In this document: positions 33,429 through 57,037 of the stretch, piece after piece
Numbering within the stretch: the stretch's first letter is position 1
Layout: every line of letters begins with the position of its first letter
The notes under the pieces: generated by a model
The model's database searches: none
Seen by the model: only the letters and a program-made list of their open reading frames with translations
What the model was told of the DNA's origin: nothing
From: Myxococcota bacterium
Lineage (GTDB): Bacteria; Myxococcota_A; SURF-8
Direction of reading: 5' to 3'
NCBI GenBank assembly: GCA_963674735.2
Contig: CAXXQS010000001.1
Coordinates: forward strand, 1,696,001 to 1,760,000
DNA length: 64,000 nt
Position numbers and translations under genes: made by a program

Positions 33429-33461
33429 GGGGGTGTGGCAATGGTTTGTGGAGGCAACCCC

Positions 33462-34100: not shown

Positions 34101-34109
34101 GGATGGACG

Positions 34110-34934
34110 ATGGCGAAGCAGACGCAAACCGCAAAGCTGCTCATCGGGTGCAGCGGCTTTTCTTACCGCGAGTGGATCGAGGCGGGCGTGTATCCGCAGG
34201 GCACCAAACAAACGGAGATGCTGGCCCGCTACGCCGAGGAATTTCCCATTGTCGAGTTGAACTATACGTGGCACCGTATGCCCACGCCGGAGATGATCGA
34301 ACGCCAGCGCCAGCAAGCGCCGCCCGGCTTTCCTTTTGCGGCCAAGCTCACCAAAACCCTGACGCACGAGGTGGATAGCAACATCTGGTGGGAGAATATC
34401 GTCCGCTACCGCGACGCCCTTGCGCCCTTGACGCAGGCCGGGCAACTGGCTGCGGTGTTGGTGCAGTTGCCACCTTCGTTCGGCCGCGCCCCGAAAAACC
34501 GCAGCTATCTGGCTCACCTCTTGGACGCTTTGCACGGGCTTCCCGTGGCGGTGGAGTTCCGTCACAAGTCGTGGGCGCACGACCGGGTGTTTGCGGAACT
34601 AGAACGCCGCAAGGTAACGCTGGTTGCCGTGGACGAGCCGAAGTTGCCGCATCTGTTCCCGGCCTTGGATGTCGTCACCAATCCCGATCAATTTTACGTG
34701 CGTTTTCATGGGCGCAATACCGCCGGGTGGCAAAACCGGGGCAACGCCCATCCCTTTGATTACGATTATTCGGACGACGAACTGCGTCCCTGGGCCGAGC
34801 AGACCATCGAACGCATGGCCAAACGTGCCAAGAAGGGCTTTATTTTCTTCAATAACCACGTATCCGGGCAAGCCCCGAAAAACGCCCGTCGGCTGGCTGA
34901 ATTGCTGGCCGAACAGGGATTGCATGGGGGCTAA
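34110..34934 (+). CDS. DUF72 domain protein
   Basis: IGCSGFSY, VELNYT, QLPPSF, AVEFRH.SW, YVRFHGRN and FFNN motifs. Confidence 0.9.
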   Translation: MAKQTQTAKLLIGCSGFSYREWIEAGVYPQGTKQTEMLARYAEEFPIVELNYTWHRMPTPEMIERQRQQAPPGFPFAAKLTKTLTHEVDSNIWWENIVRYRDALAPLTQAGQLAAVLVQLPPSFGRAPKNRSYLAHLLDALHGLPVAVEFRHKSWAHDRVFAELERRKVTLVAVDEPKLPHLFPALDVVTNPDQFYVRFHGRNTAGWQNRGNAHPFDYDYSDDELRPWAEQTIERMAKRAKKGFIFFNNHVSGQAPKNARRLAELLAEQGLHGG

Positions 34935-34936
34935 AT

Positions 34937-36127
34937 ATGGGCGCGGCACGAGACATTCTGCACCTCAACGTGGCCGATTTCGCTGTGGAGGTGGAACGGC
35001 TGGTCGATAGCCGCCTGAAGACCCGGCCCGTGATTATCGCCCCGGAAGGCGCTGCACGGGCGGCGGTCTTCGATCACAGCGAGGAAGCCTACAAGGCCGG
35101 GGTGCGTAAAGGAATGCCCCTGAAGCGGGCGCTCCGGCGCTGCAAAGAGGCGGTGGTGTTGCCGCCCCATCCCGACCGCTACGAACGCGCCATGCGGGAA
35201 ATGTTGAAACGAACCCTGCCGTATTCGCCCCTGATCGAGCAGACCGACACCCAGGGTCACCTGTTTGTGGATTTAAGCGGCACGTCACGTCTGCACGGCC
35301 CACCCCAGGACGTTGGGTTGCGGGTGCGCCGGGCTTTGCAGAAGGAAGTCGGATTCCTGCCGATTTGGACGCTCGCCCCGAACAAGCTACTGGCCAAGGT
35401 GGCGTCACGGCTGGTCAAACCCACCGGGGAACGTATCGTCACAAGCCATGAAACCAAAGAACTTTTGCATCCCTTGCCCCTGAGCCTGATTCCAGGACTG
35501 GAAGCCTATGACCTGTTTCGTTTGCGGGATTTCAACCTGTGGCGGGTGGACGAGGCCACGCAACTGTCGCCTGCCCAACTGGACGTGATTTTCGGCAAAC
35601 GTAGTGCTGTCATCCATAACCTGTTACGTGGCGTGGACGATTCTCCCGTCCTGCCGATGGGTGAGCAATACCCCCGCATCACCGCCGAACATGCCTTTGG
35701 TAACGACACCAACGACCTACACCGCATCGAAGGGGTGTTGTACGCCCTTGTGGAAAGTGCGGGTGCGGAGTTGCGAAGACGTGGAATGGCGACGAAGCGT
35801 ATGGGGCTGTTGCTCGATTATACGGACGGCAAACGTATGCGTCGCACCCTGGTCGTCACGCCGCCAAGTGCCAATGACTTTGCTTTGTACGAGACCGGCC
35901 ACAACTTGCTGCACAGGGCATGGCAGCGTCGGGTGCGGATTCGTCACCTACGTTTGATGTTGGACCGGCTGGTTTATCCTCCGCCGCCACAGTTGAACTT
36001 GTTTGCAGATGAACGCAAGGAACAAAGCGATAAGCACGACCTCGTGGCCGCACTGGATACCATTCGCACCCGCTTTGGCCCGGCGGCTATTCGGATGGGC
36101 CGCACCCTGTCCACGGGCATACCATGA
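34937..36127 (+). CDS. imuB: ImuB-like catalytically inactive Y-family polymerase
   Basis: Y-family fold motifs (EA..AGV.KGM, NKLLAKVAS, D.IR.RFG), but the catalytic acidic motifs are replaced (HLNVADF; no SxDE). QLNLF clamp motif present. Confidence 0.8.
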   Translation: MGAARDILHLNVADFAVEVERLVDSRLKTRPVIIAPEGAARAAVFDHSEEAYKAGVRKGMPLKRALRRCKEAVVLPPHPDRYERAMREMLKRTLPYSPLIEQTDTQGHLFVDLSGTSRLHGPPQDVGLRVRRALQKEVGFLPIWTLAPNKLLAKVASRLVKPTGERIVTSHETKELLHPLPLSLIPGLEAYDLFRLRDFNLWRVDEATQLSPAQLDVIFGKRSAVIHNLLRGVDDSPVLPMGEQYPRITAEHAFGNDTNDLHRIEGVLYALVESAGAELRRRGMATKRMGLLLDYTDGKRMRRTLVVTPPSANDFALYETGHNLLHRAWQRRVRIRHLRLMLDRLVYPPPPQLNLFADERKEQSDKHDLVAALDTIRTRFGPAAIRMGRTLSTGIP

Positions 36128-39100
36128 TTCCCCTGACCACCCATTCGCACTATTCGATGATGTGGGGTGTGCGCTCGCCTGCGGAGTTGGTGCGTCACGC
36201 CAAGGTCTGTGGCTATGACCGGCTAGCCCTGACCGACACTGACAACCTGTACGGCTTGTGGCCTTTTCTTGCAGCTTGCAATGCGGAAGGCGTGCAGCCG
36301 ATTGTAGGCGCGGAAGTTACCGACCCAAACACGAACGACCGGGCCGTGTGTCTGGTGAAAAACGAAACGGGCTATAGTAATCTAACCCGCCTGCTGACCC
36401 GCCGTCATTGCGATAAAGTTTTCAGACTGCAACATGTCCTGCCTGACCATGCAAACGGCCTTGTAGTGTTGACCCAATCCGAAACGCTTTTGCGGCAATG
36501 GAAGGAACGGGGCGTGTTCGTGGCGGCTGCCTTGCCTCGTAAACCCAACGGTCACGGCTTGAAGCTGCGCCAAGTAGCGAAACGCTTGGAGGTGCCGTCC
36601 GTCGCCACACCGGGGGCTTTCTTCACCCTGCCGGAAGATCATGCCGTCCATCGCCTGCAACGGGCTATCAACCTGAACACCTCGCTTTCACGTCTGACCG
36701 AACAAGACATGGTTCCCGAAGATGCATGGTTGGCTCCGTCGATGGAGTACATCCGCCGTTTCGATGTCTGGCCCGATGCCATCCGGGCGACCGACACTTT
36801 GGCCGAACGGCTCGAATTCAACGGACCGGACTTCGGGCTGGTCCTGCCGAGTTGGCAGGATCAACATGCGGCGGAATCGGCCCTGGAACTTCGTACAGCG
36901 GCGTATGAAGGGGCACGCTGGCGGTACGGGGAAACGCTTTCGGATAAGGTGGTGCAACGCTTGGAATACGAACTGGCCGCTATCCGTGACAAGGGCTTTT
37001 CGGCCTATTTCCTGATCGTGCAGGACATCGTGAAACACAGCCCGCGTATTTGCGGGCGTGGGTCGGGTGCCGCATCCATCGTGGCCTATTGCTTGGGCAT
37101 CACCAACGTCTGCCCGCTCAAGTACAACCTCTATTTCGAACGCTTCCTCAATCCGGGACGAAAAGACGCCCCCGACATCGACGTGGATTTCGCCTGGGAT
37201 GAACGTGACGACGTGCAGTTGGCCGTGTTGGAGAAATACAAGGGACATGCGGCCATGGTCTGCAACCATGTGCTGTTGCAGCCCCGCTCGGCCATTCGGG
37301 AAGTGGCCAAGGTCTATGGCCTGACCGACCGTGAAATCGGGCAGGTATCCAAACGCCTGCCGTGGTTCTGGCGGGCGATGGATGGTGCCGACAACGACGC
37401 CCTGCTTTTACGCCTCAAAGCTCTGCCGCAACTGAAGCAACTGGATTTTCCCGAACCGTGGCCGGAGATTATCCGCCATGCCCAACGCCTGATCGGCACA
37501 CCACGAAACCTGTCCGTGCATTCCGGCGGGGTGGTAATTACACCCCGACCTATCGATACATACGTGCCGGTGGAAATCGCCCCCAAGGGTGTACCCATTA
37601 TCCAGTGGGAGAAAGACGGTACGGAAGACAGCGGTCTGTTGAAAATCGACCTGCTCGGCAACCGCAGCCTCGGAGTCATTCGGGACGCCATTGCGACCGT
37701 CAAACAAAACGGGAACGCCTTCGACGAAACCCGCTGGGAACCGGAAGACGACCGGGCGACGCAGGGCCGCATCGCCAACGGCGAAACAATGGGTTGCTTC
37801 TACATCGAATCCCCAGCCACACGGTTGTTGCAACAGAAATCAGCGGTGGGTGACTACGAACACATGGTGATTCACACGTCCATTATCCGACCGGCCGCCA
37901 ACCGTTGGATCAACGAATACCTGGCCCGGCTGAAAGGAGAACCCTGGGAAGCCATCCATCCGCTTCTGGAGGGTGTGTTGGACGAAACCTACGGCATTAT
38001 GGTCTATCAGGAACACGTTTCGCTGGCGGCGGTGGCTTTGGCAGGCTTCAACCATGCCGACGCGGACGGATTAAGAAAGGTGATGGCTCGTAAGGATCGG
38101 GATAAAAAGCTGCTCGACTACTTCCAACGCTTTGCTATGGGCGCACGGGAGCGAGGCGTAACGGACGCACAAATCGAAACCGTGTGGGACATGATCCTAT
38201 CTTTCGATGGTTATTCCTTCTGCAAGCCTCATTCGGCCAGCTACATCCGGGTGTCGTTTCAGGCGGCATACTTGAAGGCTCACCACCCGGCGGCCTTCAT
38301 GGCGGCGGTGATTTCCAACCAAGGTGGGTTTTACTCGACGTTTGCCTATGTTTCCGAGGCGCGGCGTCTGGGGGTGGACATCCTGCCGCCGGATGTCAAC
38401 GATAGCGGCATCCGCTGGACGGCGGGCGAGGGCTGGATGCGGGCGGGGCTGATGGCGGTCAAACACCTTTCAGCAAACACGCAAGCTCGGATCATTAGCG
38501 AGCGAGCGCGCACACCCTATCAAAGCCTGACAGATTTTCTAAATCGCGTGCAGCCCAACGATGAAGAAGCCCGGTCGTTGATCCATGCCGGGGCGTTCTC
38601 GACCTTGCACCCTAACGCCTCTCATGCGGCGCTGGCATGGGAACTGGCCACATGGCGCAAGGAGCGGCGACAGACCAAACCACAGCAGGATTTGTTTGCA
38701 CAGCCAGCGAAAGCCGCCACGCCACCAACGTTTCCCGCCGATGACGGTATTGCCCGCTTGCGCCGGGAGTTTGCCGCCTTGGGTTTTCTGTGCGACCGCC
38801 ACCCGATGACGCTTTTTGCCGATACGCTCAAACACCGCAACATGGTCAAAGCCAACGACCTGCACAACCATGCAGGCAAACGCGTAAGCGTGGCCGGGAT
38901 GCTGATTACCGGCAAGGTGGTCTCCACGCATAAGGGTGACCCGATGGAATTCGTCACTTTCGAGGACGAAACAGGCGTGATCGAAACCACGTTCTTCCCC
39001 CGCGTGTACGAGCGCTTCTGCTCGATACTGGATTACGGCCACCCCTTCATCCTGACCGGCAAAGTAGACGAGCAGTTCGGAGCCTGTACGTTGACCGTGG

Positions 39101-39129
39101 AGCAGGTGTTTGCCGTGCAGCGGGTGTAA
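36124..39129 (+). CDS. dnaE2: Error-prone DNA polymerase III alpha (DnaE2)
   Basis: PHP motifs HSHYS and ALTD, GRGSGAAS, PDIDVD, KIDLLG, YSFCKPH, and a C-terminal OB fold; follows imuB. Confidence 0.9.
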   Translation: MIPLTTHSHYSMMWGVRSPAELVRHAKVCGYDRLALTDTDNLYGLWPFLAACNAEGVQPIVGAEVTDPNTNDRAVCLVKNETGYSNLTRLLTRRHCDKVFRLQHVLPDHANGLVVLTQSETLLRQWKERGVFVAAALPRKPNGHGLKLRQVAKRLEVPSVATPGAFFTLPEDHAVHRLQRAINLNTSLSRLTEQDMVPEDAWLAPSMEYIRRFDVWPDAIRATDTLAERLEFNGPDFGLVLPSWQDQHAAESALELRTAAYEGARWRYGETLSDKVVQRLEYELAAIRDKGFSAYFLIVQDIVKHSPRICGRGSGAASIVAYCLGITNVCPLKYNLYFERFLNPGRKDAPDIDVDFAWDERDDVQLAVLEKYKGHAAMVCNHVLLQPRSAIREVAKVYGLTDREIGQVSKRLPWFWRAMDGADNDALLLRLKALPQLKQLDFPEPWPEIIRHAQRLIGTPRNLSVHSGGVVITPRPIDTYVPVEIAPKGVPIIQWEKDGTEDSGLLKIDLLGNRSLGVIRDAIATVKQNGNAFDETRWEPEDDRATQGRIANGETMGCFYIESPATRLLQQKSAVGDYEHMVIHTSIIRPAANRWINEYLARLKGEPWEAIHPLLEGVLDETYGIMVYQEHVSLAAVALAGFNHADADGLRKVMARKDRDKKLLDYFQRFAMGARERGVTDAQIETVWDMILSFDGYSFCKPHSASYIRVSFQAAYLKAHHPAAFMAAVISNQGGFYSTFAYVSEARRLGVDILPPDVNDSGIRWTAGEGWMRAGLMAVKHLSANTQARIISERARTPYQSLTDFLNRVQPNDEEARSLIHAGAFSTLHPNASHAALAWELATWRKERRQTKPQQDLFAQPAKAATPPTFPADDGIARLRREFAALGFLCDRHPMTLFADTLKHRNMVKANDLHNHAGKRVSVAGMLITGKVVSTHKGDPMEFVTFEDETGVIETTFFPRVYERFCSILDYGHPFILTGKVDEQFGACTLTVEQVFAVQRV

Positions 39130-39372: not shown

Positions 39373-40041
39373 TCAAGACCCCTGCATTCGATACGGAACA
39401 TGCAGCATCGCCGCCGCCTTCTTCTTGACCCGCTCTCCGCGTCGGTCGTAACGGCTGGTGGTGGTCGGGCTGGCGTGACCGGCGAGCTTTTGCACGGTGG
39501 CGATGTCCGCACCTGCATCCAGTAGATCGGAGATGAAGCTTCGGCGCAAATCGTGAGGCGAGAAAGCTTTGACCTCGGCCTCTTTTCGACGCTTGGTCAA
39601 TACATGTAAAATGGCCTGGGGAGTCAGGCGCTCCGCGACAAGGTGCCCGCCACGGCGAATTCGATAAAGCAGCGGTCCAGACTCAGCCCCGCGCACCGAC
39701 AGCCACGCCTCGATGGCCTCTTTGCTCCCGTTCGTTGCATAGACGATTCGCGCCTTGTTGCCTTTGCCCGCCCTCACCGTCAATGCACCGTCCTCCGGGT
39801 TGTAATCGCCCAGATCGAGGCCGATAGCCTCTGCCCGACGCAAGCCACCTGCATAGAGTACGGCCATAATAGCGGCATCGCGGGGACCGGCGGCGGTTTC
39901 GTCCTCCATGCAAACATGGAACAGGGCCGTGATCTCGCCAGTGGAAAGCGCTCGCCCACGCGGGAGCGTGCTGCCCTTTACGTTTCGCACATCCACCGCC
40001 CGGCGGTAGTCCTCGGCCTTCATCGCGCCGAGTCGCCAGCA
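39373..40041 (-). pseudogene. 5'-truncated tyrosine recombinase (catalytic domain only)
   Basis: RDAA..GLRRAE, GKGNK, HDLRR and LAGHASPTTTSRY motifs. The frame starts abruptly at CWRLGAM after TAATAA, with no N-terminal binding domain. Confidence 0.8.
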
Positions 40042-40683: not shown

Positions 40684-42426
40684 TCATTGGCTACTCGCGT
40701 TCCTTGCGCACCGGAAACCGTAATCGAACCAAGTGAAATCCTTGTTAATCCTCATGCGAGCCGAGGCGCGTAGGTAGACTTCGTAATAGCTCACTGAGCC
40801 GCCACGCAAAACGGGCCAAGGAGTCGATTGATCGTCTTCCCAAGCACTACCGTCTGAGGGGGCTCCTTCGTAGGAGTCATGGAACAAGTCTTCATTCCAT
40901 TCCCAGACGTTGCCAAACATATCGTACAAACCAAAATCATTCGGTTCCATACCTCTAACCGGATGCAATTGGGCAATGCAATGGGGTGTTGGCTCACAGC
41001 TATTGTCACTGTGCCACGCAATGCCATCAAGACAGGCTACATCATCACCGCAGGAATAGATGGTATCCGCACCAGCGCGAGCGGCATACTCCCACTCCGC
41101 TTCGCTGGGCAGACGCCCCCCAGCCCACTCGCAGAAGGTTTTTGCTCCATACCACGTAACCTCATTCACGGGATGATCGCGAAAACCTTGCTCAACCATC
41201 CAAAGTTCACCTGACTCATGAATGCGAAGATCGCCTTCTTCGTCATCACTATCGACGCATTCGCCATCTCCGCAGGTATTCCCGTTCTCGTTCAAGAACT
41301 GGACGAACTGGCTGTTGGTGATTTCAGTCTCTGTCATCTCGAACGATGATACGGAGACTTCATGTCTCGGAGACTCTTCTGGATAACAGCGTTCGTCCTG
41401 GGGAACGCAACCCATTTGAAATGTCCCGCCAGAAATGCTTACGAAGACCATCTCGCGATAGCAGTCGGGATAGCCGATGTAGCCGGGAGCGCAGTGGTCG
41501 CAATCGGGATAGGTTTGATAACCGATTTGACATTTATCGCAATAGTCGCCAGTAAGTCCGTGATTGCAGGTGCAGATGTCATCGTCTGGATTACACGCGC
41601 CATTTCCATTGCAGGTGTAGGGCTCATTTGCGCACCCATCGAATGAGCAGGTGTCCCTCGTACAATCATCGTCATCGGCGCAGTTCTCGATGAAGTCCTC
41701 CCGAACTCCACAGTGATTGCTCCATTTGCGATCCAAACCGTCACAGACTATTTGGTCGTGGAAAACGTAGTCTTCACAGACATGGTTAGTTGGGTGGCAA
41801 CGTTGGTCATAGTCGCAATCATCGAGGACTGCCCAATCCGTCGCGACTTCAAAGCGCCCAAGGCATTCGCTTGACACTCCGTCGCAATAGCGGTTTTTGT
41901 ACCGCTCCTCTACGTCGTCCCCACAGCCTTCTCCTGAACAGCGGTATTCGGGGATACGGGTCTGACACACATGGTCTTCTCCAAGCAATAAACATCCATC
42001 ACAGCAGGGGCCGATGGCGCATGAGCAATCACCCTCAATTGCCTCCTCAGTTTCTCGTTCCTGCTCCACCGAGTCATGTTCGGTTGAATCCGCTTCCAAC
42101 TCCGGTTCATTATCTGTCAGGTCGATGTCAGCATCAGCGGGAAGCCCATCTCCATCTTCAGTGAAATCCTCGTCGATTTCATCATCCAGATCGCCATCAC
42201 GATCACCTTCCTGGAGGGCTTCATGGTCAACATCGAGGCCATCCTCGTCGAAGTCCATGTCTCCATCGTGAGGATTACCCCAATCGTCATCAGTATCATC
42301 ACCGGCTTCGATGGAGTCTCCATCGACTAAAGAATGTGGCGCAGTCACGGATTCACCCGCACATGCTGAGATGAATGAAGCCAGTAGAAACACTGCATAA
42401 TATAGTGAAGGAGTAATGAATCTCAC
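40684..42426 (-). CDS. Lipoprotein with acidic linker, Cys-rich/EGF-like repeats and a C-terminal formylglycine-generating-enzyme (SUMF1) domain
   Basis: GGAG RBS before GTG 42426, lipobox SAC, DGD linker, EGF-like Cys spacing, and FQMG, TEITN, RLPSEAEWEYAAR, GNVWEW and GFRCAR. Confidence 0.85.
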   Translation of the reverse strand: MRFITPSLYYAVFLLASFISACAGESVTAPHSLVDGDSIEAGDDTDDDWGNPHDGDMDFDEDGLDVDHEALQEGDRDGDLDDEIDEDFTEDGDGLPADADIDLTDNEPELEADSTEHDSVEQERETEEAIEGDCSCAIGPCCDGCLLLGEDHVCQTRIPEYRCSGEGCGDDVEERYKNRYCDGVSSECLGRFEVATDWAVLDDCDYDQRCHPTNHVCEDYVFHDQIVCDGLDRKWSNHCGVREDFIENCADDDDCTRDTCSFDGCANEPYTCNGNGACNPDDDICTCNHGLTGDYCDKCQIGYQTYPDCDHCAPGYIGYPDCYREMVFVSISGGTFQMGCVPQDERCYPEESPRHEVSVSSFEMTETEITNSQFVQFLNENGNTCGDGECVDSDDEEGDLRIHESGELWMVEQGFRDHPVNEVTWYGAKTFCEWAGGRLPSEAEWEYAARAGADTIYSCGDDVACLDGIAWHSDNSCEPTPHCIAQLHPVRGMEPNDFGLYDMFGNVWEWNEDLFHDSYEGAPSDGSAWEDDQSTPWPVLRGGSVSYYEVYLRASARMRINKDFTWFDYGFRCARNASSQ

Positions 42427-43246
42427 GACGCAGACTCCGTGCCAAAAAAGAAAAAGGGGCAACTAGCGACCCGCAGAGCACATCACTAGCGCCCCCTCCT
42501 ATAGAGGCGTTGTGTGACTAGCACAACGCATACAGGCGGCGTCGTGCTCTGCGGTTTGTCTTGCCCAATCTCTCCAAATCTTCCGATCACGGGTAGTCAA
42601 TCCGTCAGCCCGCCTGGGCAGTAAAATTCCGGTTCGATTTGAACAGTGGAATCGTATCAAAATTATTGGTGGGGTTCGATGAATTTCGGATTAGGTAAGG
42701 TGGCCCCTCTAACCGGGCCGTTGAAACGATGTCGAAAATCCGTGTCGGTGATAGCCGCGCTGCCCGTGTTGAAGGTGTTAGAATGCTGCTATCTTCTACT
42801 CTCTATACACAAAAACGTATTAAGCCAAACCGAAAACCAGGGGCAAAGCAGGGAAATTTGACTGTGAAATATTGTGTGTACTTTGAGAGATGAATTCTGG
42901 TGGGTTTTGGGGACTTATCGCCGCTTATCATGTCTTTATTGTGATTCATAAGAGGTGCGTTCTGAGATTATGATGAACCCTTCTAGTTGCGCTCTACCCA
43001 TATACCACCCACTCGGACCCATTCTGTATTGCGGAATTCATATTCCATTTCTCGATGTTCTAGCTGACGCCCACATTCCTTTTTGAGCGCGGGGTATGCG
43101 TCTTTCGAGGATTAGGGAAGCGGTGGGAGTGTGAAGTCGAGTGCCCTTAGTGCGCTTTTAGGTTTGGTCGTTTGGGTCATAAGACACATCCTCGTTATGA
43201 TGCCTTTGAGAAAAGCAAGCTACTTCAAAATCTGCTGTTCAATGAT

Positions 43247-43837
43247 TCATTCGATCACGACTCGCAGCCGTGGGTTTCGGCGCTCCCTTATCGTGACTCC
43301 ATCCTCAATATTTCCGTCCACTAAACCAGCCTTGTCAAGGTGGTCGAGAAAATCTACGAAGTCCAGGTAAGAAAGCTGATCGCGGATGTCATCGGTCAGT
43401 CCATCGTACAGTTGCCTCGGTGTCTGTCGTCTCTCGCGGACCTCGTCGCGCAGCACCAACGTGGCCAGAATTTCCTCCTCCTTGCGACTCAAGGTCACCC
43501 GTTCCACTTGAAACAAGAGCGGCAGAATGGTTGGCAGCACGACCATCGGCAAATCGGGGAAACCGCAGGCGGCCAAGACACCGCTCAACACGGCTGTCGT
43601 GACGATAGTTTGCGAGATTCCAGAGCCGATTTTCAACTTATAACCGCCACCCAGAAACTCCAGTTCGGAATTTCCTCCTTCAATCGTTAACAAGACCTCC
43701 ATAAAAGTCTCCCGGCCTCTCTCGCGACCGGCAAAAGGGGCAGGAAAGAGTTCGTTCCAAATCTCCTCGATATCCACAACGTCCGATCCGCATTTCTCAG
43801 CCAAGCTTTGCAAAATCATTTCGTGTAAAACCTTCAT
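43247..43837 (-). CDS. Hypothetical protein with a central hydrophobic segment and a possible C-terminal winged helix
   Basis: Starts immediately after the upstream stop. Hydrophobic IVTTAVLSGVLAACG..VVLPTILPLLF; C-terminal pattern EEILATL..TPRQL..LDHLDKAGLV. Confidence 0.6.
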   Translation of the reverse strand: MKVLHEMILQSLAEKCGSDVVDIEEIWNELFPAPFAGRERGRETFMEVLLTIEGGNSELEFLGGGYKLKIGSGISQTIVTTAVLSGVLAACGFPDLPMVVLPTILPLLFQVERVTLSRKEEEILATLVLRDEVRERRQTPRQLYDGLTDDIRDQLSYLDFVDFLDHLDKAGLVDGNIEDGVTIRERRNPRLRVVIE

Positions 43838-45553
43838 TTACTCCCCCTCTTGTCTACCAAAATCACCGAAATCGAAGAAAGATTCCTCTCGGAATAGGTG
43901 TCCCAGCACAACTTGTAGTTCCCAAGCATGTTCGTGCAAAAAGGCTGCGTCCTCAATGAAAATCTCTGGATGCGCAAATTGCTCTCTCAGAAAATGGGCC
44001 ATCGCCCGCCACAGTACTGAGGAACCGGGAAGCAATAGTAATTTCTTACGTCCGGCCTCGGATCGAAAGACCAGAACATCGTGTCGGGACCGGTCGATGG
44101 TCATGTGAGCGACGGCGTACCTCACCCGCAGATTGGCATCGTCGAACCAAACAGGGAAATTTTCGAACGGAGGTATGTCCATCAGATAGGTCAAATCGGC
44201 GACCGTGGCCAGGGGATCGAACCAACGCTGAAGCCATTCTGCGTCTGCAAGCGACGACAGGTAAAAGCAACCGAGAACCGGGGCTATTTCCTTGGCTACA
44301 GTGCCGAAAGCCGTCAATTCCTCCGGCGACTCGATGATGAAATATTCAACAACTCGCCGAAGGTCGCTTCCCCTCTGGTAGCTGACCCGTAGGGCAACCA
44401 CGGGCGAGCTTTCAAAGCGGTCGAAGTTTTGTCGATCTTCCTGACTCAAGGCGACCTGCTCGACCATTCTCCGGGCTGGGCGCACGGTCAGAAAAAAATG
44501 ATCGTCAGGTGACGCGGAAGAGACCAAGCCACGCAGTTCCTTTACCGGGACTTCTGACAGTTGCTTCACAAGTCCGATAGGCTGCACAGCGTTTACGATA
44601 AGCCGCTCCATGCCGAATTGGACAGCAGCAAAGGTGTCGGCAGTTTCATGCTCCATCGCTGGTCGTAGGGAAATACCGCTTGAACCGGATGGCACCAGTT
44701 CTTTCTCTTTTTCGAGCAATCTCGCCGTGGATTCCCGCTGACCGTCCCAGGCAAGAGAGGCCGACCCTGCATCGTTCAGCAATCCAGCCAAAGCGTCGTG
44801 AAACGATTCCAGCAAATAACGTGACGCCTCGTCGAATTCCTCCGCTACGGCTGCCTCGTACAGTCGGTCATCTGCTTCGCTGGCGTCGAAAACATCCCAA
44901 GCGCTGAAATCCGGTTTCGCGAGCTTGGCTTTCATATATGCATCCTGCCAGAACGCTTCCGAAACGTTATCTAGGAGAACCTTCAATCGCTGGTCGGGAT
45001 AGTATCGAAAGCGCAAGTCGGATGGACGAAACTCCTGCAAACCACGATCCAGCAGCGTTTCAACTGCCGTTCCCTGCATGCACAGCCGCAGAGCCGCCGC
45101 TGCCGCGTTGTGACGCAAGTAACCACCGGAAAAACCACGAGCCAGCGACTCTCCGATTCTGTAGTAACGTAGGTAGCGTGGATAGTTCTCCAGGAGGCCC
45201 GGGTCGGGACTACCCTGACTCAGAATCATCATGCTTAAGTAGGTTGCATTGCTTTCGTGTACCGTGCGGCATCTGTCGAGCAGTGTCAGGAAGGTTCGCT
45301 GATAATGCTCCTCCTCCGGCAGGCGCAATGCGAGGTCGGCGTAGACGTGAAGCAACGAACCGTATGCGGTTGTATCCGTGAGGGTCGAATGCAGCGATTC
45401 ATGCAGACTGACCAGGACGGTTTGGTCTGAGACGGATTCCCCCGAGGCCAGGATATCCCAGGTGAAAAGACGGTTGCGACCGGAAGGATGGTCGTCGCCA
45501 CCTTTCAGTAGCAGGTCTTTGAGATCGGAAGGAGAAAACGGCACGAAATACAC
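43838..45553 (-). CDS. Putative zinc metallopeptidase (HExxH, gluzincin-like) with an unknown C-terminal region
   Basis: LHESLH followed about 45 aa later by VHESNAT (third-ligand Glu pattern); GGAGG RBS. Confidence 0.55.
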   Translation of the reverse strand: MYFVPFSPSDLKDLLLKGGDDHPSGRNRLFTWDILASGESVSDQTVLVSLHESLHSTLTDTTAYGSLLHVYADLALRLPEEEHYQRTFLTLLDRCRTVHESNATYLSMMILSQGSPDPGLLENYPRYLRYYRIGESLARGFSGGYLRHNAAAAALRLCMQGTAVETLLDRGLQEFRPSDLRFRYYPDQRLKVLLDNVSEAFWQDAYMKAKLAKPDFSAWDVFDASEADDRLYEAAVAEEFDEASRYLLESFHDALAGLLNDAGSASLAWDGQRESTARLLEKEKELVPSGSSGISLRPAMEHETADTFAAVQFGMERLIVNAVQPIGLVKQLSEVPVKELRGLVSSASPDDHFFLTVRPARRMVEQVALSQEDRQNFDRFESSPVVALRVSYQRGSDLRRVVEYFIIESPEELTAFGTVAKEIAPVLGCFYLSSLADAEWLQRWFDPLATVADLTYLMDIPPFENFPVWFDDANLRVRYAVAHMTIDRSRHDVLVFRSEAGRKKLLLLPGSSVLWRAMAHFLREQFAHPEIFIEDAAFLHEHAWELQVVLGHLFREESFFDFGDFGRQEGE

Positions 45554-45559
45554 CTCCTG

Positions 45560-46915
45560 TCAGATCAATTTCTCCGCGTACCGCTGCTTGATCTTCTCTA
45601 CGAAATCAAGCAAGACTGGTTTCGCTTCCATCTCCCTACGGTCAAGCAGGTGGTCGATGGCGCGTAGACTCCCCTCGACGCCTTTCTCCAAACGCTCGGC
45701 CCACTCTTTCCTCCCGGCAAGGCGCAGTCCCGACGCGATCAATTCGTTGGCGGTCTTGGGAAGATCGTAAAAGGGGACTATCAGCGATGCGGTAGCGCTG
45801 AGCATTTCATGAGCTTCACGGGTCTGTTTTTCCTTTCGGTAGAGTGGAAGCTCACTTTGGATTTCGTTATCGTATTCTCGCTGTAGTTCTGTCTCGAACT
45901 GGGCGAGTTCCTCCATAAGCAGCACCAACCTTTCCGGATCGTGGATAGCCAATCCCTCTTTGGTCCGCTCCAGGATCAGATTGTATTTGTCGATGAAGCG
46001 ACCGCTAACAGCAACCTCATGCAAATCCAGCGCATCCTCAATGGTCAGCGCATCCAGCACGTCCACTGGGAAGTGGGAGTGCGTGGCCTGCTTGACCAGG
46101 TCGACGAAGAGTTTGAAAAACACCTGCATCTCGGAAAGGCATGTGCGGCCTCCGGCAAGGTCGGTCAAACTGAAGTCCAACAGGTTTTCCTGCGGCAGGA
46201 CGCCTTCCGATTGAACGGCCACAGCCCCCGACAGGTAATAGATAAAGTCTGCCCAGTTGCTGAGGATTCCCCATAATTGCTTGTGTCCGGTTGCTTTGGC
46301 GATCCGGTAGACCTCTCCTCTACTTATGCTCGATAGATTTTGAAGTTCCCCAGTAACCTTGGGCCAATCGAAATAATCGTTTGGGGCTGCCAAACGGAGG
46401 ATACTTTGGCGATCTTCAATATCCCGCAAGAGCCGCTCTTTGAACCAGCCGCTGGTCGCGCGGACGTCCCATGGAGTGATCCAACGGGAGCTTTCGTCAA
46501 CCACCTGGACCATTTCAAGGCGGGGACCTCCCTTGTAAAGATCGGCTTCCTTGCCTTCGGCGATCTTGGAATCCGCGAACTCCCGAAGAGACCCGAACTC
46601 GGATCGTAGGGCAGGGATGATAAGGCCGTCACTGAACAGCCTTGGGTGGGGCAGCAGGATTTCGTGCGCAAGTTCCGATTCGATCAGGTGGGAGGCCGCA
46701 ATGACGACATGCCCCTTTACAAGGGCCAGGAGTTTCAGTTTCCGTTCCAGGGAGAGTTTGATCCCCTCCACGTCGTCCGCCGTCCAGGCGACCTGGGAAT
46801 AGGTCACACGGTCAAACTCCGTGAAGTAGACTCTGCTCATCTGAATTTCATCGGGAGCGAGTCGCTTCATCGAAATATTCTCCACTTCGTTCGTATCCAA
46901 GTTCTTTCTTGCCAA
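45560..46915 (-). CDS. Hypothetical protein, mostly helical
   Basis: 451-aa ORF, 6 bp from the next gene; no confident motif. Confidence 0.65.
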   Translation of the reverse strand: MARKNLDTNEVENISMKRLAPDEIQMSRVYFTEFDRVTYSQVAWTADDVEGIKLSLERKLKLLALVKGHVVIAASHLIESELAHEILLPHPRLFSDGLIIPALRSEFGSLREFADSKIAEGKEADLYKGGPRLEMVQVVDESSRWITPWDVRATSGWFKERLLRDIEDRQSILRLAAPNDYFDWPKVTGELQNLSSISRGEVYRIAKATGHKQLWGILSNWADFIYYLSGAVAVQSEGVLPQENLLDFSLTDLAGGRTCLSEMQVFFKLFVDLVKQATHSHFPVDVLDALTIEDALDLHEVAVSGRFIDKYNLILERTKEGLAIHDPERLVLLMEELAQFETELQREYDNEIQSELPLYRKEKQTREAHEMLSATASLIVPFYDLPKTANELIASGLRLAGRKEWAERLEKGVEGSLRAIDHLLDRREMEAKPVLLDFVEKIKQRYAEKLI

Positions 46916-47394
46916 CTAGCGATTCGATGATGAATAAGCATTTCAATAATTACAAAGTAAGTCTCGGGTGTGTCCTTGTCTTATTCAGGATACTGAGATC
47001 GGAAGCCATCCTGTCATCAAGCGGATAGTGCCATTCCAAGCACCAAAATGTGTATCGAGAACAGTGATAAGCTTCTCAGAATTTTTTCCTTTTTCATTCT
47101 CGGATGTTCCAAACGTTACCTGTGCATTCTGCCAGAAAACCAATCATCCATCCAGATAATTGAAATGCTTTATGGCTTCTTGCTTTCAGTTCATTGGTAA
47201 GTGTATTCATTTTGCCAAATAATGTCACACCTGAACCTTTATGCTTCTCAATGAACCGATTTGCTATTATTCGCTACTTGAAAACCGGGGAAGACCATGT
47301 TATAAAATTAGCCAATCCTGGAAAAGCTTTCCGGGATTTTCTTTTTTCAGCTGACCGATAAGTCAGAAGCAGCCCAAACAAAAAGGGGAAAATC

Positions 47395-48611
47395 ATGCAC
47401 CAGATGCAGGATGTCGACGTGTCTTTACTGTCTCCGTGGGAAGACAATCCGAGGCAAAATGAAGCGGCTATTGATGCAGTGGCGAAAAGCATCAAAGCCT
47501 TCGGATTCAACGTACCGATCCTCTGTGACGAGGATTACAAAATCATTGCCGGTCACACCCGATGGAAAGCGGCGCAAAAACTCGACTTGGAAAAAGTTCC
47601 CGTCATTACTCTTCAAATGAGTGATGCACAGCGAAAAGCTTATGCTATCGCCGACAACAAAACAGCGGAAATCGCCGACTGGGACTTCCCCAAACTGAGG
47701 GACATCCTCGAAGAACTCCGGGCGGAGGATGTCGACTTGGGGAGTTGGGATTCTCGGATGATGAATTACGCCGTTTTCTCAAGCCGAAGGGAATTGACGA
47801 AAATGACGTGCCTCCCATTATGGACGCGCCGGTGACAGAAAAAGGGGACTTATGGATTCTCGGAAACCATCGCTTGCTATGCGGCGATTCCCGTGATTCC
47901 GAAACGATAAACACGTTATTGGATGGAAAACGGGTCGATCATGTTTTCGGCGGCCCGCCGTACTTCAACCAGCGTCAATACGCTCAATGGTCGACGTATG
48001 AAGACTACCTCGGCGACATGAAGACAATCCTTGAAATCTGTTGCGATTCGCTCGTTGACGGTGGAGTGTTGGTATGGAATATCGCCAATGAATGCTCAGC
48101 GCATCTCGATCTCACGTCCCACCATTCCGGTTTGCTCGAATCCGTGGGTATGACATATCTTGACACACTCATCTGGTACAAAACCCAAGCGAATTATCTG
48201 ATTCCCCGTAACTTCCATATTCGCAGAAACGGTCGGTATTATCCGGCTTTTCAGTGGGAAGCTCTGCTGGTATTTCAAAAGGCGGGGAAAATGCCGAAGA
48301 TGAGCAAGGAGGCGGTCAAGTATATGAGCGAACATCATACCAACGTCTGGGAAGTTCCTGCCATCACCAAACAGTCCGAAAAATTCGGCCATCCGGCGGT
48401 TTGCCCGGCCGAGATTCCGTATCGTTCCATGCTCGCTTATTCGGGAGAAAGCGCACATGTTTTTGAGCCATTTGGCGGCAGCAGCACGACCCTGATTGCG
48501 GCAGAAAAAGCTAAACGCCACGCTTTCTTGATGGAGCAACATCCGATATACTGCGATCAGATCGTCAAACGCTGGGAAGTCTACACGGGAGAAAAAGCAA
48601 GGAAGGCATGA
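47395..48611 (+). pseudogene. ParB-N domain fused to an N4/N6 DNA methyltransferase, split by a 1-bp frameshift near 47745
   Basis: NPR..SIKAFGF..IIAGHTRW..IADNK (ParB), then LGNHRLLCGDS, GPPY, HPA..P and FEPFGGS (methyltransferase). One extra T in GGGAGTTGGGA would restore GSLGFSDDEL. Confidence 0.8.
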
Positions 48612-49786
48612 CAAAGAAGCCTGATACCCAAACCCAACTTCCGTTTGATTCGCCGCCCGCATGGCAATTGCCGGAAGCGTACCAACCGACTCGCCCGGCG
48701 CTTTTGTCCGTGGAGCGGGTCATTTTCGCTCGTGGTGCGCTGGATACGCCGGAACGGCAGGCTTATGCTGAGCGCATCTGCGCCTTGTATCCAAACGCCG
48801 AACAAATCGACCGGACGGATACGCCACACAGCCGCGTTCAACTGGGCGAGGGCGATCCGTATAAGCGTCATCGCAAGGGCAAGACTACGCTGGTTTTCGG
48901 TGAGCATAAAAGCTCTGTTCGCAAGAGCGAGGAAAGTGGCAACACCTGCCCGAACTACTGGCATTTTTCGCCCACCGGATTCTGCTTCTACGATTGCCAG
49001 TACTGTTACCTGGCCGGGACGGCAACCGTCTGGCATTCGCCGACGATTCGTATCTATGTGAACCTGGAGGAAATCATCGCCGAGATCGACCGTACGGCCC
49101 GAAAACTCGCCGAGCCGACCGCCTTTTACATCGGCAAGTTGCAGGACGGTCTGGCGCTCGATCCGCTGACCGGCTACTCAAGCGTGCTGGTGCCGTTTTT
49201 CGCTCAGCATCCCTATGCTCGGCAGGTATTGCTTACCAAGTCGGCGGACGTAAACCAATTGCTCGACCTGGAGCATGGCGGCAACACAATTCTTTCGTGG
49301 AGTCTCAACCCGCCGGAGGTGTCCGAAGCCTTTGAGCGCAACGTACCGACGCCCCGAGAACGTCTGGCTGCCATGAAGCAAGCATCCGAGGCAGGCTATC
49401 CGGTACGAGCCGTTTTGATGCCGATCATTCCGGTTGAAAACTGGCAGGAAATTTACACCAGTTTCATCGAGGAACTTCTTTCAAGCGTTCCCCTGACGCG
49501 TCTGACTATGGGCGGCATTTGCAGCTATAAAGGCGCGACGCGCTTGATGGAAAAGAAGCTCGGCAAGGGAAACCTCATTTCGGAGAGCTTTGTTTCAGAT
49601 GCGGAATGTGCCGATGGCCGCAGGCGTTATCCTTTCGAGTTGCGCGTGGAGATGTATCGCCACCTGATCGACACAGCAAGACGGATTCGGCCCGACCTGG
49701 AGTTGGCATTGTGCCTCGAAGAACCACTCGTTTGGGACGCCCTTGGACTGACGGCCAGCCGGGGCCGATGCAATTGCGTGCTGTGA
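48608..49786 (+). CDS. Spore photoproduct lyase-like radical SAM protein
   Basis: CFYDCQYCYL, G..QDGLALDP, LLTKS, SWSLNP, ERL.A and PIIP motifs characteristic of the SPL family. Confidence 0.8.
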   Translation: MTKKPDTQTQLPFDSPPAWQLPEAYQPTRPALLSVERVIFARGALDTPERQAYAERICALYPNAEQIDRTDTPHSRVQLGEGDPYKRHRKGKTTLVFGEHKSSVRKSEESGNTCPNYWHFSPTGFCFYDCQYCYLAGTATVWHSPTIRIYVNLEEIIAEIDRTARKLAEPTAFYIGKLQDGLALDPLTGYSSVLVPFFAQHPYARQVLLTKSADVNQLLDLEHGGNTILSWSLNPPEVSEAFERNVPTPRERLAAMKQASEAGYPVRAVLMPIIPVENWQEIYTSFIEELLSSVPLTRLTMGGICSYKGATRLMEKKLGKGNLISESFVSDAECADGRRRYPFELRVEMYRHLIDTARRIRPDLELALCLEEPLVWDALGLTASRGRCNCVL

Positions 49787-49793
49787 GGCGTCC

Positions 49794-50258
49794 ATGACGA
49801 AAACGAACCAAACCGGCTATATCTTTCCGCCCGACGACATGGCAGATGTCGTCGAACCCGATTTCATCAGTACATGCCTGTTGGGTGTCCCTACTCGCTG
49901 GCATGGACGACGCGCCAAGCGGCGCGATACGCTCATTGAGAGGCTGAAGAAACGTTACATTCTCGTTCCTGTCTGCCCAGAGCAACTGGGTGGAATGTCC
50001 ACCCCTCGAACCGGCGAAACGCTGGAAGGCGCTACTGGAGCGGATGTGCTTGACAAAGGCGTGAGGATCATCGCGCCCGAAAACGGAAAAGACGTCACCG
50101 CCTATCACGTTAACGGCGCAAAATACGCACTGGAGTTGGCGCGAATCATCGGCATTAAACGCGCCTACCTGAAAAGCGGCAGTCCGTCCTGTAATAAGGA
50201 AGGCCTGGCGGGAGAAATTCTGACACGAGCCGGAATCAAGGTCATTCGCATTCCGTAA
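49794..50258 (+). CDS. DUF523 (thiouracil desulfidase TudS-like) Fe-S protein
   Basis: ISTCLLG..RW.G, VCPEQLGG..TPR and LK..SPSC; all three conserved Cys are present. Confidence 0.85.
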   Translation: MTKTNQTGYIFPPDDMADVVEPDFISTCLLGVPTRWHGRRAKRRDTLIERLKKRYILVPVCPEQLGGMSTPRTGETLEGATGADVLDKGVRIIAPENGKDVTAYHVNGAKYALELARIIGIKRAYLKSGSPSCNKEGLAGEILTRAGIKVIRIP

Positions 50259-53523: not shown

Positions 53524-55224
53524 ATGGCCCCCTTTAATCCAATTGAACCCGATGAACTTGCGCATTCACCGCTTGCTGCTGGTTTTGTGACTGCTGGAAT
53601 GCAAGAACGTGATGCAGAGTGGCTTGCCAGAATCTTGATATACGGCGGTTTTGTGTTTGACGAAGGAGATTCTACACCGCTTTTTTTTCCATTCATGTTG
53701 AGTTTGGAAGAGTTTACAGAAAAAATCATCGTTCCATTCAAAGAACCTGTTCCAACTACCAAAAAGAACCGCAATCTAATCAATGCTCTTCAACAAATCA
53801 TAGGTTTAGTAGGGCCGCACAGGGACGGCAGGCTTTTGGCGATAATGGCGTACTTGGCGGATGTATACCGTAATCGTGAATACAGCTCGTTTACCAAGAT
53901 TTATGAAAGTAATTGGTGGAAACAATTTATTCAACCGTCTGAACCATTTATTCCGATCTCCTGGCACAATGCAGTAAAAGAATTGTCGGAAAAAGGGTAT
54001 ATTCCCAAGAGTATAAAGTACTTTAGATCTTTGATTAACTCTTTAAAACGGGATAAAAAAGCCTTCTGGCTTTCGGCAATACGTTGGGACTTACTGAGCG
54101 AGGCTCATGTCTCTATCGACGATAGGATACGAGATCCAAGACGACTGGACTTCTGGCTGGAGGCAGGAAACCCCGAGAAAGCAATAAAGAACCCGGAAGT
54201 AGATAAGGCCATCTGCGGATATTTATCGGAAGTTTCTGACTCTCAACTCGGGGTCGCGGCGCTCAACCTTGCAACGGCATTGACGGATTCACTCGATGCT
54301 TCTGAATGGCAGTACATCGCGCCTAGATGGACGAGATTTCACAATTTGTATTCCGGGGAAGAGGAAAGCATAATTACACTGTTATTGGCGCGATATCAGG
54401 CACAGCAATCGGATGAACATTTGAAAATGGCTCTGCTTCGCCTGTTCCTTTTGCGCTTTCGAGAAAATGAACTCAATCCCGATATCGCCAAACCCCTGCT
54501 GACCGTCGCGAAAAAGGAACTTGGCCAAAACCGCCCATTGCTCAAAAAAGATGCCGAAAAGCCGTTCGATCCCCATTCATTGAATGCGCCCTTAGCCTTC
54601 CTGTTTCGCTTCGGCGGTCCCAGCCCGGCGCTGGAAACCATGCTTACACTATTCAGTGCGCTTGAACATCCTGCTGTCACACCGGACCTTAGATACTGGA
54701 AAGAGGAAGGATTGGTTGATCCGCCGGAAACTTATCGCTGGATTCCCGATCGGATTGCCGCCATCATCCACGCGCTGGGAGCCGAGCAGGAAAAGGATCC
54801 CACGCTAGAAAGTGTTCGTAGATCCTTGGCGCAGTTCTTTCTAAAGCGGCTGAAATCGAAAGATAATGTTAATGACAGAGATGTAATCGATGACGATTTC
54901 ATCGAGAACCGTTGGGAGTGGCGATATTTTTACGTCCGAGCTCTACGCGAATTGAAGGTCAATCCCCTGGGCAAAAGCCACCACGTGCTTCGTTGGGTAT
55001 CCGAAAACGACCCGCATGAGGAAGTACGTGAAGAGGCGAAAAAAGCGTATAAAGAACTCCGGCATCAGGTCAGCTTGCCTGCTGAGACATCTCCTCGGAA
55101 ACCGCTTTTCGCCGCGTTCTGGTGGCTCAGGCAAGCTCACCTGAATTCGTTGGGGATTGAACCGGACCCACAAGGGGCCCAGCGCACCCGCAGCAAGGAG
55201 GTGACCTACACAAACAGAACCTAA
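53524..55224 (+). CDS. Hypothetical helical protein with a HEAT-like C-terminus
   Basis: 566 aa with an AGGAGG RBS; HEAT-like VRALREL and NDPHEEVREEAKKA. Confidence 0.7.
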   Translation: MAPFNPIEPDELAHSPLAAGFVTAGMQERDAEWLARILIYGGFVFDEGDSTPLFFPFMLSLEEFTEKIIVPFKEPVPTTKKNRNLINALQQIIGLVGPHRDGRLLAIMAYLADVYRNREYSSFTKIYESNWWKQFIQPSEPFIPISWHNAVKELSEKGYIPKSIKYFRSLINSLKRDKKAFWLSAIRWDLLSEAHVSIDDRIRDPRRLDFWLEAGNPEKAIKNPEVDKAICGYLSEVSDSQLGVAALNLATALTDSLDASEWQYIAPRWTRFHNLYSGEEESIITLLLARYQAQQSDEHLKMALLRLFLLRFRENELNPDIAKPLLTVAKKELGQNRPLLKKDAEKPFDPHSLNAPLAFLFRFGGPSPALETMLTLFSALEHPAVTPDLRYWKEEGLVDPPETYRWIPDRIAAIIHALGAEQEKDPTLESVRRSLAQFFLKRLKSKDNVNDRDVIDDDFIENRWEWRYFYVRALRELKVNPLGKSHHVLRWVSENDPHEEVREEAKKAYKELRHQVSLPAETSPRKPLFAAFWWLRQAHLNSLGIEPDPQGAQRTRSKEVTYTNRT

Positions 55225-55338
55225 CCGTTGATTGTGAGGTTCCGCTTGGGAACGTAAGCGTCCCGCCCGGCCTTTCGGCTGTCCGAACCTCGTCTTTCAG
55301 TTTGCAAATGAAGACAAACGCAAGAAAGGACAAAGGAA

Positions 55339-55641
55339 ATGCGTATATCCAACGTACTGGTGCTGACGCACCACGCCCGCAAGCGAATCCAGCAGCGGGG
55401 CATCCCCCAAGCAGCCATACAGACGATCTTCACCTTCGGCACACCGCACCATGCCGGTAAAGGCTGTGTCGCGTACCACATCGACACAAAGGCCATACAA
55501 AAAGCGAAACATGACGGCCATGACCTGACCGAGTTGAAGAACACAGCTTGCATCGTCGCAGAGAACCGAGTTGTGGTTACGGTCGAGCATGCGACGAGAA
55601 AACCCAGAAAATGGTCTAACGGCAACGGAGGGAGGTCATGA
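55339..55641 (+). CDS. DUF4258-like small protein (putative RNase toxin fold)
   Basis: LTHHARKRIQQRGI and C-terminal VVVTV; AAGGA RBS; ATGA overlap with viperin. Confidence 0.7.
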   Translation: MRISNVLVLTHHARKRIQQRGIPQAAIQTIFTFGTPHHAGKGCVAYHIDTKAIQKAKHDGHDLTELKNTACIVAENRVVVTVEHATRKPRKWSNGNGGRS

Positions 55642-56866: not shown

Positions 56867-57037
56867 CCTATTCCCAAGCCCCTGTTCATCTGCTCATAAA
56901 ACTCGCCAACCCCTCCACGGCTTCGGTCCAACTTGGATGATTATCTTCAAATCGGAAAGATACGCCCAATGCCTTCATGGCTGGGCCAAGCGCCTCTTGC
57001 AACAACTCAAGGCGGTAGTTGTTATCGTGCGACCATT

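Follow-up and report, generated by a model that had tools for sequence, protein, structure and literature searches.

In the ImmA/ImmR, IrrE/DdrO and CapP/CapH systems, an HExxH metallopeptidase is encoded beside a small partner protein, and cleavage of that partner licenses a response. Bacterial gasdermin operons likewise place a protease gene beside the gasdermin gene. An actinobacterial arrangement of the FxSxx-COOH type was described by Kaur, Burroughs, Iyer and Aravind in 2020 (PMC7159879): a zincin metallopeptidase and a small, fast-diverging precursor are coupled to TIR-AP-ATPase-TPR genes. Here we analyzed a locus of three adjoining genes, which we call A, B and C, in a 64,000-nucleotide (nt) stretch of the genome of a Myxococcota bacterium (assembly GCA_963674735.2, contig CAXXQS010000001.1, positions 1,696,001 to 1,760,000 of the forward strand). 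This whole stretch is referred to as the window, and positions are counted from its first letter. We found that B is a candidate zincin-like metallopeptidase, that C is its fast-evolving partner, and that A belongs to a separate, widespread and unnamed family. We propose that the locus would be a composite conflict/immunity cassette, in which two evolutionarily separate units, B-C and A, are co-transcribed.

The listing of open reading frames (ORFs) places the three genes on the minus strand at 45560-46915 (451 amino acids, aa), 43838-45553 (571 aa) and 43247-43837 (196 aa), with gaps of 6 nt and 0 nt, exactly the tight packing given in a preliminary description of this DNA; the starts were then refined. 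Because the homologues of A, mostly 436-445 aa long, align from Met16, and because the ATG at 46870 has a GGAG 5' of it, we place A at 45560-46870 (436 aa), the ORF form reaching to a TTG at 46915. The sequence after the TGA of A reads cAGGAGGtgtatttcGTG, with an AGGAGG 8 nt ahead of the GTG at 45544. Given this motif and a database entry of the same length (P0001), B most likely starts at GTG 45544 (43838-45544, 568 aa) and not at GTG 45553, which yields the 571-aa form. The A-B spacer calculated from the refined starts is 15 nt, essentially one ribosome-binding site, and the ATG of C (43247-43837, 196 aa) directly abuts the TAA of B. Upstream of A lies an AT-rich intergenic region of 524 nt (46871-47394, 39.5% GC) that it has in common with a divergent ParB_N gene; this region contains a weak sigma-70-like site on the minus strand at 47228-47200 (5 such sites versus 3.3 expected from shuffles). 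Terminator-like sites were not enriched (5 found versus 5.8 expected from shuffles). With a spacer that holds only a Shine-Dalgarno (SD) site, an abutting stop and start, and no enrichment of terminators, A, B and C look like one transcription unit. The cassette ends 3' of C at a non-coding gap of 784 nt (42463-43246), and the next gene, which encodes a lipoprotein with an FGE-sulfatase domain (40684-42462), is outside the unit. All three are real genes, each having homologues, and neither GC nor GC3 content sets A apart from B-C.

A word-index search with B returned only 5 relatives, and the profile built from these, when run against 1.84 billion representatives, recovered 638 members of the B family at E ≤ 1e-3 (222 at E ≤ 1e-30), mostly 530-600 aa in length. 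Residue numbers of B refer to the 571-aa form. The HESLH and HESNAT motifs and the N-terminus unlike a signal peptide that had been pointed out in the middle protein were all found in the sequence, with LHESLHS at residues 50-56 and HESNAT at residues 99-104. In an alignment of 56 members, which are 20-34% identical to the window protein except for one at 77%, residues H51, E52, H55, E100, Y127, P186 and W444 are invariant. Furthermore, of 149 representatives examined, all 143 that cover the four columns keep the H-E-H-E set (H51/E52/H55/E100) intact, and Y127 is kept in 145 of 145. Conservation at this level argues for an active enzyme and against a degenerate domain; such an enzyme would bind zinc and hydrolyze peptide bonds. 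B is present in one copy in the window's genome and in only 2 of 401 sampled genomes of its own phylum, the window's genome included.

The AlphaFold2 model of B (pLDDT 91.8, pTM 0.92) begins with a small sheet (strands 14-16, 24-27 and 32-35), followed by the HExxH helix (43-60) and by a helix that carries E100 (96-111); helices continue to about residue 315, and residues ~316-560 form alpha/beta domains. B is in these respects like the gluzincins of clan MA: its HExxH lies on a helix after a small beta sheet, an invariant Glu lies on a later helix, and there is an invariant Tyr. Residues 1-~200 also gave weak structural alignments to at least 11 gluzincins (VIA-align Z 3.7-4.7, each below chance level, Z < 8), among them aminopeptidase N, DPP III, M30 lugdulysin, M3 oligoendopeptidase F, LTA4 hydrolase, ACE, M36, thermolysin, collagenase T and aminopeptidase A. 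Since every Z was below chance level, we count the fold as consistent with a zincin and not as proof of one. B differs from the gluzincins in matching no Pfam peptidase profile, in the modest Z scores themselves, in a Glu placed 45 residues past the HExxH with two helices between, and in C-terminal alpha/beta domains for which no structural match was obtained. Taken together, B would be a cytoplasmic, catalytically competent, gluzincin-like metallopeptidase, with an N-terminal catalytic domain of ~315 residues followed by alpha/beta domains.

We located B in 16 loci, of which 13 are actinobacterial, one is a short metagenome contig and two are from the SURF_8 relative. A homologue of C adjoins B in 15 of the 16, the remaining one being a contig that ends inside B. 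C usually lies directly downstream of B with stop and start overlapping; in one locus from Thermoleophilaceae (L040) the two genes are adjacent and divergent. In addition, one 733-aa protein (P0228) is a natural C-B fusion, with C N-terminal to B: its residues 10-167 align with the C profile at an hhalign probability of 99.5% (E 5.8e-23), and its residues 197-731 with B. This protein is the sole representative with a C-like domain among the 149 B representatives. On the strength of this adjacency and of the fusion, we conclude that B and C are, as judged by gene arrangement, a functional pair. In a run without controls, prediction of the B-C complex gave a score of 0.23 (mark, 0.32), a value that yields no verdict.

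C proteins are 159-205 aa long with unconserved C-termini, and the alignment of 14 members has a single invariant column. The window protein is 11-18% identical to its actinobacterial counterparts, and the homology was bridged by L040 (window C versus L040 C, E 3e-18; L040 C versus the C of locus L030, E 9e-8). The preliminary description had seen in C a Gly-rich segment followed by a hydrophobic, hairpin-like stretch, and a C-terminus resembling a winged helix-turn-helix (HTH). The Gly-rich and hydrophobic segments are present, and neither of the two structural readings was upheld. The maximal hydropathy of the stretch (KD19) ranges from 1.36 to 2.11, being at least 1.6 in 8 of the 14 homologues and below 1.6 in 6; the stretch is interrupted by Pro-Asp-Leu-Pro in the window copy and by Asp or Arg in most homologues. 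We read this segment, a borderline case, as buried helices, and C may insert into the membrane in the window's clade. With respect to DNA binding, none of the 14 members matched an HTH family at E ≤ 1, no PDB sequence match was obtained for C, and the stretch corresponding to the putative helix 2 is lacking in the actinobacterial proteins and, over the whole alignment, in 9 of 14 homologues. C would be a small, non-enzymatic protein that diverges rapidly and is produced through translational coupling, serving as the substrate of B, as its inhibitor or adaptor, or as both.

In Actinobacteria the pair is flanked by genes for NTPases of the STAND class. A gene for an 850-aa TIR-STAND-TPR protein lies directly upstream of B and ends at the B start in 12 of the 13 actinobacterial loci, TIR-AAA-TPR or PNP_UDP-NB-ARC-TPR genes lie downstream, and a second B paralogue upstream of the TIR-STAND-TPR gene was seen in 8 of 13. 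Loci L028-L039 (for example L030, 736-2433) have two to three B paralogues, the extra copies lacking a C of their own and being followed directly by the TIR-STAND-TPR gene. Similar associations occur within single proteins: P0128 carries B together with a TIR-like domain, an nSTAND NTPase and TPR repeats, P0194 has the N-domain of B fused to trypsin and TPR, and in P0205 B is joined to GAF and PAS. In L040, B-C lies among conjugation-type genes (TcpC, ParA-like and AAA_10), and an NTPase domain was found neither in A, B or C nor in any neighbour in the window. The link of the pair to conflict proteins is thus seen beside or within B in relatives, and the window itself has no STAND gene. A contig search with the single B protein added no further context, a search with the alignment of the closest B clade returned the SURF_8 metagenome-assembled genome (MAG) only, a metagenome scan for B yielded one truncated contig, and sampling of 401 genomes around an actinobacterial B carrier recovered the carrier itself only. 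In Actinobacteria, B-C would act as a proteolytic processing or trigger step for the TIR-STAND-TPR and PNP-NB-ARC-TPR NTPases.

A showed a different distribution. Its family has at least 252 homologues, and we found it in 24 loci among species-representative genomes from many phyla, ranging over Syntrophaceae, Phycisphaerae, Chlorobiaceae, Ignavibacteria, Hydrogenedentes, Aminicenantes, Planctomycetota, Zixibacteria and two archaeal MAGs. Only one of these 24 loci, in a Myxococcales SURF_8 MAG (L001) whose proteins are 77-80% identical to those of the window, carries A together with B and C, as determined by BLAST and hidden Markov model searches. A was absent from all 13 actinobacterial B-C loci, two A-carrying genomes lack B, and no A-like domain was detected in the 149 B representatives. 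Co-conservation thus applies to B and C, and the three genes are not a single conserved system.

The neighbours of A are variable, with no family common to more than 4 loci. PADLOC matches among them include HmaA/HmaB (L002 and L009), Shedu SduA, type I and type II restriction-modification and AbiLi/ii, to which Pfam adds TIR and BrxC/D-like genes. In two unrelated MAGs, a Syntrophaceae (L002, 3-12323) and a Bathyarchaeia archaeon (L009, 378-6930), the A homologue is embedded in an Hma-like system, with the gene for the HmaA SNF2 helicase on one side and that for the DUF1156 methylase on the other; in L009 only a 107-aa DUF1156 fragment precedes A. Four of the 24 copies of A (L010, L021, L023 and L024) are disrupted, being split into 2-4 ORFs or having lost the N-terminal part, which suggests that the gene decays often. 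A belongs to an independent family, normally present as a lone gene in variable, defence-rich neighbourhoods.

The model of A (pLDDT 69.7) combines a confident N-terminal alpha/beta domain (blocks 4-22 at 80-94) with a C-terminal helical half of low confidence. Its best structural matches were weak (VIA-align Z 3.6-4.5) and consisted of PIN/VapC chains and class I tRNA-synthetase-like folds. Five PIN/VapC chains aligned over most of each target, all within the same range of Z and below chance level; D20 of A is invariant, E64, E66, D125 and D150 are almost invariant, and Pfam detected no PIN domain in A. The invariant polar residues R13, D20, R21, K46, K52, H61, S65, R146, R184, Y188, E222, Q227, E228 and D232 suggest that A is an enzyme, with the N-terminal alpha/beta domain probably the enzymatic part. 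In the window's genome and in one related genus, A holds the slot upstream of B-C that is occupied by the STAND protein in Actinobacteria; therefore, A might be either an independent single-gene defence candidate or an effector under the control of B-C.

None of the three proteins matched a family in Pfam (E ≤ 1), NCBIfam (E ≤ 1 for B), PADLOC-DB v2 (E ≤ 1; libraries up to 2023) or PHROGs, as anticipated when the genes were first described as unannotated and a novel system was expected to give no PADLOC match. Sequence profile searches of the PDB with A, B and C returned nothing significant, the best scores in a wide VIA-align search were Z ≤ 5.2 for B and ≤ 4.7 for A, and an ESM Atlas search matched unnamed clusters only. 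Ten family members all bore the source name 'hypothetical protein' or none, and no relatives of A or B were found in plasmid and viral-contig collections. Literature searches turned up no paper describing the B family, the supplementary metallopeptidase lists of PMC7159879, which might hold B relatives, being outside that scope. A and B are two sizeable protein families that are nameless in every library searched.

The locus had been placed in an island near viperin, a methyltransferase and CRISPR, and all three were located. A prokaryotic viperin gene lies at 55638-56504 (NF038283, 275 bits versus a cut-off of 180), an N6/N4 DNA methylase at 47745-48611, and a CRISPR-like array of six repeats at 57033-57400, with a ~30-nt repeat, GTTTCAATCCACGCCCCCGTGAAGGGGCGAC, and 65-67 nt spacing. 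An IS481-type transposase gene (57441-58448, minus strand) is directly beside the array, and a second copy lies at 60464-61471; besides these two IS481-type genes, there are IS200 and IS4 transposase genes, a tRNA-Ala and an integrase remnant of 216 aa. We found no att-type direct repeats linking the tRNA-Ala to the integrase end. Viperin is preceded by a gene for a 566-aa protein (53524-55224) and overlapped by a 175-aa minus-strand ORF (55221-55748), neither of which had a Pfam, NCBIfam or PHROGs match. The methylase ORF overlaps a ParB_N ORF (47395-47835) by 91 nt in a different frame, and the two look like a frameshifted ParB-methylase fusion as in mobile elements. Directly after a spore-photoproduct-lyase (SPL)-like radical SAM gene (48608-49786) comes a gene for a DUF523 / 2-thiouracil desulfurase (49794-50258), and within the island the two may act as a pair in repairing or modifying DNA or nucleobases. 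On the far side of the cassette, a LexA - DUF72 - ImuB-like Y-family polymerase - DnaE2 mutagenesis cassette (33435-39129) ends just before the integrase remnant, which is of the tyrosine type (39373-40023). In the 592-aa predicted lipoprotein at 40684-42462, a long acidic stretch of low complexity and a Cys-rich region accompany an FGE-sulfatase domain at the C-terminus; at the corresponding position the SURF_8 relative has a gene of unrelated sequence, with a sub-threshold FGE-sulfatase match (E 1.5e-4).

The explanation that we favour, with confidence somewhat above an even chance, is that B is an active zinc peptidase acting with or on C, and that the pair is a processing or trigger module of a conflict system that lies, in the window, beside an independent defence-island gene. 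The earlier proposal of a new peptidase-gated conflict system is retained in part: the conserved B-C pair, the invariant HExxH and the ties to STAND proteins speak for it, and the co-conservation of A and the DNA-binding or hairpin readings of C are not part of what was kept. Several observations weigh against the explanation we favour. All the gluzincin fold matches lie below Z 8, and Foldseek returned no PDB match at E ≤ 1e-3 for the B model or, likewise, for the A model. Because neither the window nor L040 has a STAND gene adjoining B-C, the STAND association is not universal. Moreover, the context of B comes from 15 genomes, 12 of which form one actinobacterial clade (55-100% identical mutually), and ~600 other members of the family of ~640 representatives are outside that count. 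As for the defence surroundings of A, at least one of the six nearest genes matched PADLOC in 11 of the 23 other loci (E ≤ 1e-10; 118 proteins scanned), a raw count made without a background set, and some of these matches, such as mad2 (a PrmC-like methyltransferase) and PD-T4-6 (a Ser/Thr kinase), probably fall on housekeeping genes. The view of A as a mere neighbour is strained by the A-B-C block, kept at 71-80% amino-acid identity between two genera, and by the A-B spacer, which holds only a ribosome-binding site. When the window is compared with the SURF_8 contig, homology spans exactly 46895-43239, and the DNA on the C side differs beyond it; the two proteins downstream of C in the window and in the relative have no similarity. 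In the relative's contig, a short stretch 2.1 kb past the C gene matches the dnaE2 end, which places A-B-C at the same chromosomal site in both genomes. Overall, we consider it less likely than not that A depends functionally on B-C.

The same facts could be taken to mean that the three genes work as one, in either of two ways. In an integrated peptidase-gated defence, infection would lead B to cleave A or C and so produce a toxic effector, for example a membrane-inserting C fragment or an activated A. The tight operon with its SD-only spacers, the block kept in two genera with a differing C-side flank, the 35-residue hydrophobic stretch of C in the window's clade (KD19 1.68-2.11) and the island with viperin and the CRISPR-like array all fit such a system. 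It sits poorly with the occurrence of A beside B-C in just 1 of the 24 loci with A and in none of the 13 actinobacterial loci with B-C, with the lack of any A-B fusion in the 149 representatives, with the charges in the C stretch and its KD19 below 1.6 in 6 of 14 homologues, and with PADLOC, gasdermin models included, matching neither A nor C; we judge it unlikely. Alternatively, A-B-C might be a minimal, STAND-free, protease-licensed immune pathway, in which C would be a decoy or sensor perturbed by a phage factor, freeing B to cleave and thereby licensing an effector. The effector would be A here (also able to act alone) and the TIR-STAND-TPR protein in Actinobacteria. We give this pathway a similarly low chance; if it were true, B would be a new metallopeptidase family devoted to immune signalling, with an overall architecture not seen before. 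A further possibility, which we think improbable, is a switch made of protease B and repressor C, of the ImmA-ImmR, IrrE-DdrO or CapP-CapH type, in which C would bind DNA and repress neighbouring genes (A here, STAND genes in Actinobacteria) and B would cleave C upon damage or infection. The pairing of a peptidase with a small partner agrees with this, as do the last 70 residues of C, which look helix-rich with a short beta wing in the window copy, and the LexA-ImuB-DnaE2 damage cassette that adjoins the locus. IrrE was also the only PDB sequence hint for B, over the HExxH region (E 0.99, not significant). Nevertheless, neither M78 nor any other peptidase family of Pfam matched B at E ≤ 1, the 14 C members are without an HTH family at the same threshold, and the helix 2 segment is missing from 9 of them. 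The single invariant column of C would be unusual for a DNA-binding domain, and the P0228 fusion would be ill-suited to a repressor that must leave the protease.

Still less probable, in our assessment, is that B-C is a maturation module with FxSxx-COOH-like logic, in which B would trim the precursor C to a signalling or toxic peptide for the TPR sensor of the STAND protein. Such coupling of a zincin and a small diverging precursor to a TIR-AP-ATPase-TPR gene is described for Actinobacteria in PMC7159879, C evolves fast, and the TPR parts of the STAND-TPR neighbours match FxSxx_TPR (NF040586) at 127-150 bits, below the 300-bit cut-off. Against this, B and its paralogues had no NCBIfam match and hence none to the HExxH model of that system; C, at 159-205 aa, is not a short precursor and lacks a conserved tail, whether FxSxx, RxD or acidic; and the loci examined have no radical SAM/SPASM gene next to B-C. 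We regard as very improbable that the three are unrelated neighbours with housekeeping or element-maintenance roles whose defence flavour is guilt by association. Some A homologues do lie between metabolic genes (panB, deoxynucleoside kinase, MFS transporter, acyl-CoA dehydrogenase), and the L040 pair lies among conjugation genes. This is countered by the natural fusion of C to B, by the position of the two side by side in 15 of the 16 loci, by the fusions of B to TIR-STAND-TPR, trypsin-TPR and GAF-PAS, and by a patchy spread (B in 2 of 401 genomes of its own phylum; A in many phyla, with 4 of 24 copies disrupted) that is typical of accessory conflict genes. The view of B-C as a conflict-system module, with a possible anti-phage role, thus remains the one that we put forward.

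Two features make the locus of wider relevance. B combines a strict zinc-peptidase motif, a confident model with no solved look-alike, a dedicated fast-evolving partner and repeated ties to TIR-STAND-TPR proteins. A is a candidate single-gene defence family that extends from Myxococcota to archaeal MAGs, is found beside Hma, Shedu, restriction-modification and AbiL genes, and is absent from PADLOC v2.

Compared with the known systems, B-C resembles the bacterial gasdermin operons in that, within a defence island, a protease gene adjoins the gene for a protein that has a hydrophobic segment. It differs from them in that A, B and C have no PADLOC match, C is far smaller than a gasdermin, and its hydrophobic stretch is not conserved as a membrane segment. 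Like ImmA/ImmR, IrrE/DdrO and CapP/CapH, B-C consists of an HExxH gene and a small partner in a mobile or defence context; unlike them, it has no M78 domain in B and no HTH family in C, B is ~3x larger with extra domains, and a natural C-B fusion exists. With respect to the STAND NTPase systems (Avs / nSTAND), a P-loop NTPase is present only in the actinobacterial relatives and in P0128, and not in the window.

The nearest likeness is to the FxSxx-COOH system. Taking that system as it is set out in PMC7159879, both have an HExxH peptidase with a small, rapidly diverging protein, both occur in Actinobacteria flanked by genes of the TIR-STAND-TPR kind, whose TPR in the case of B-C resembles FxSxx_TPR below threshold, and both have standalone versions. 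B-C differs in that B is a multidomain protein of ~560 aa with no sequence relation to the NCBIfam HExxH models (three actinobacterial B homologues had no NCBIfam match at E ≤ 0.1), and in that C is a structured partner of ~180-200 aa without a conserved C-terminal peptide. A radical SAM/SPASM maturase is likewise missing from the conserved neighbours of B-C, the radical SAM genes of the window being the SPL-type enzyme and viperin, in other transcription units, and in place of a STAND gene the window has the unrelated gene A upstream. Because the tests for membership in FxSxx-COOH, in M78/HTH pairs and in the PADLOC systems failed, we place B-C in no named system. As judged from its sequences, B-C shares the logic and the neighbourhood of the system of PMC7159879 without being a member of it or of any other named system. 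If B-C triggers or processes TIR-STAND-TPR switches, it would add a protease layer to bacterial immunity of the NLR-like (nucleotide-binding, leucine-rich-repeat receptor-like) kind, and would extend the peptide-processing theme that was predicted in 2020 to a different, much larger peptidase.

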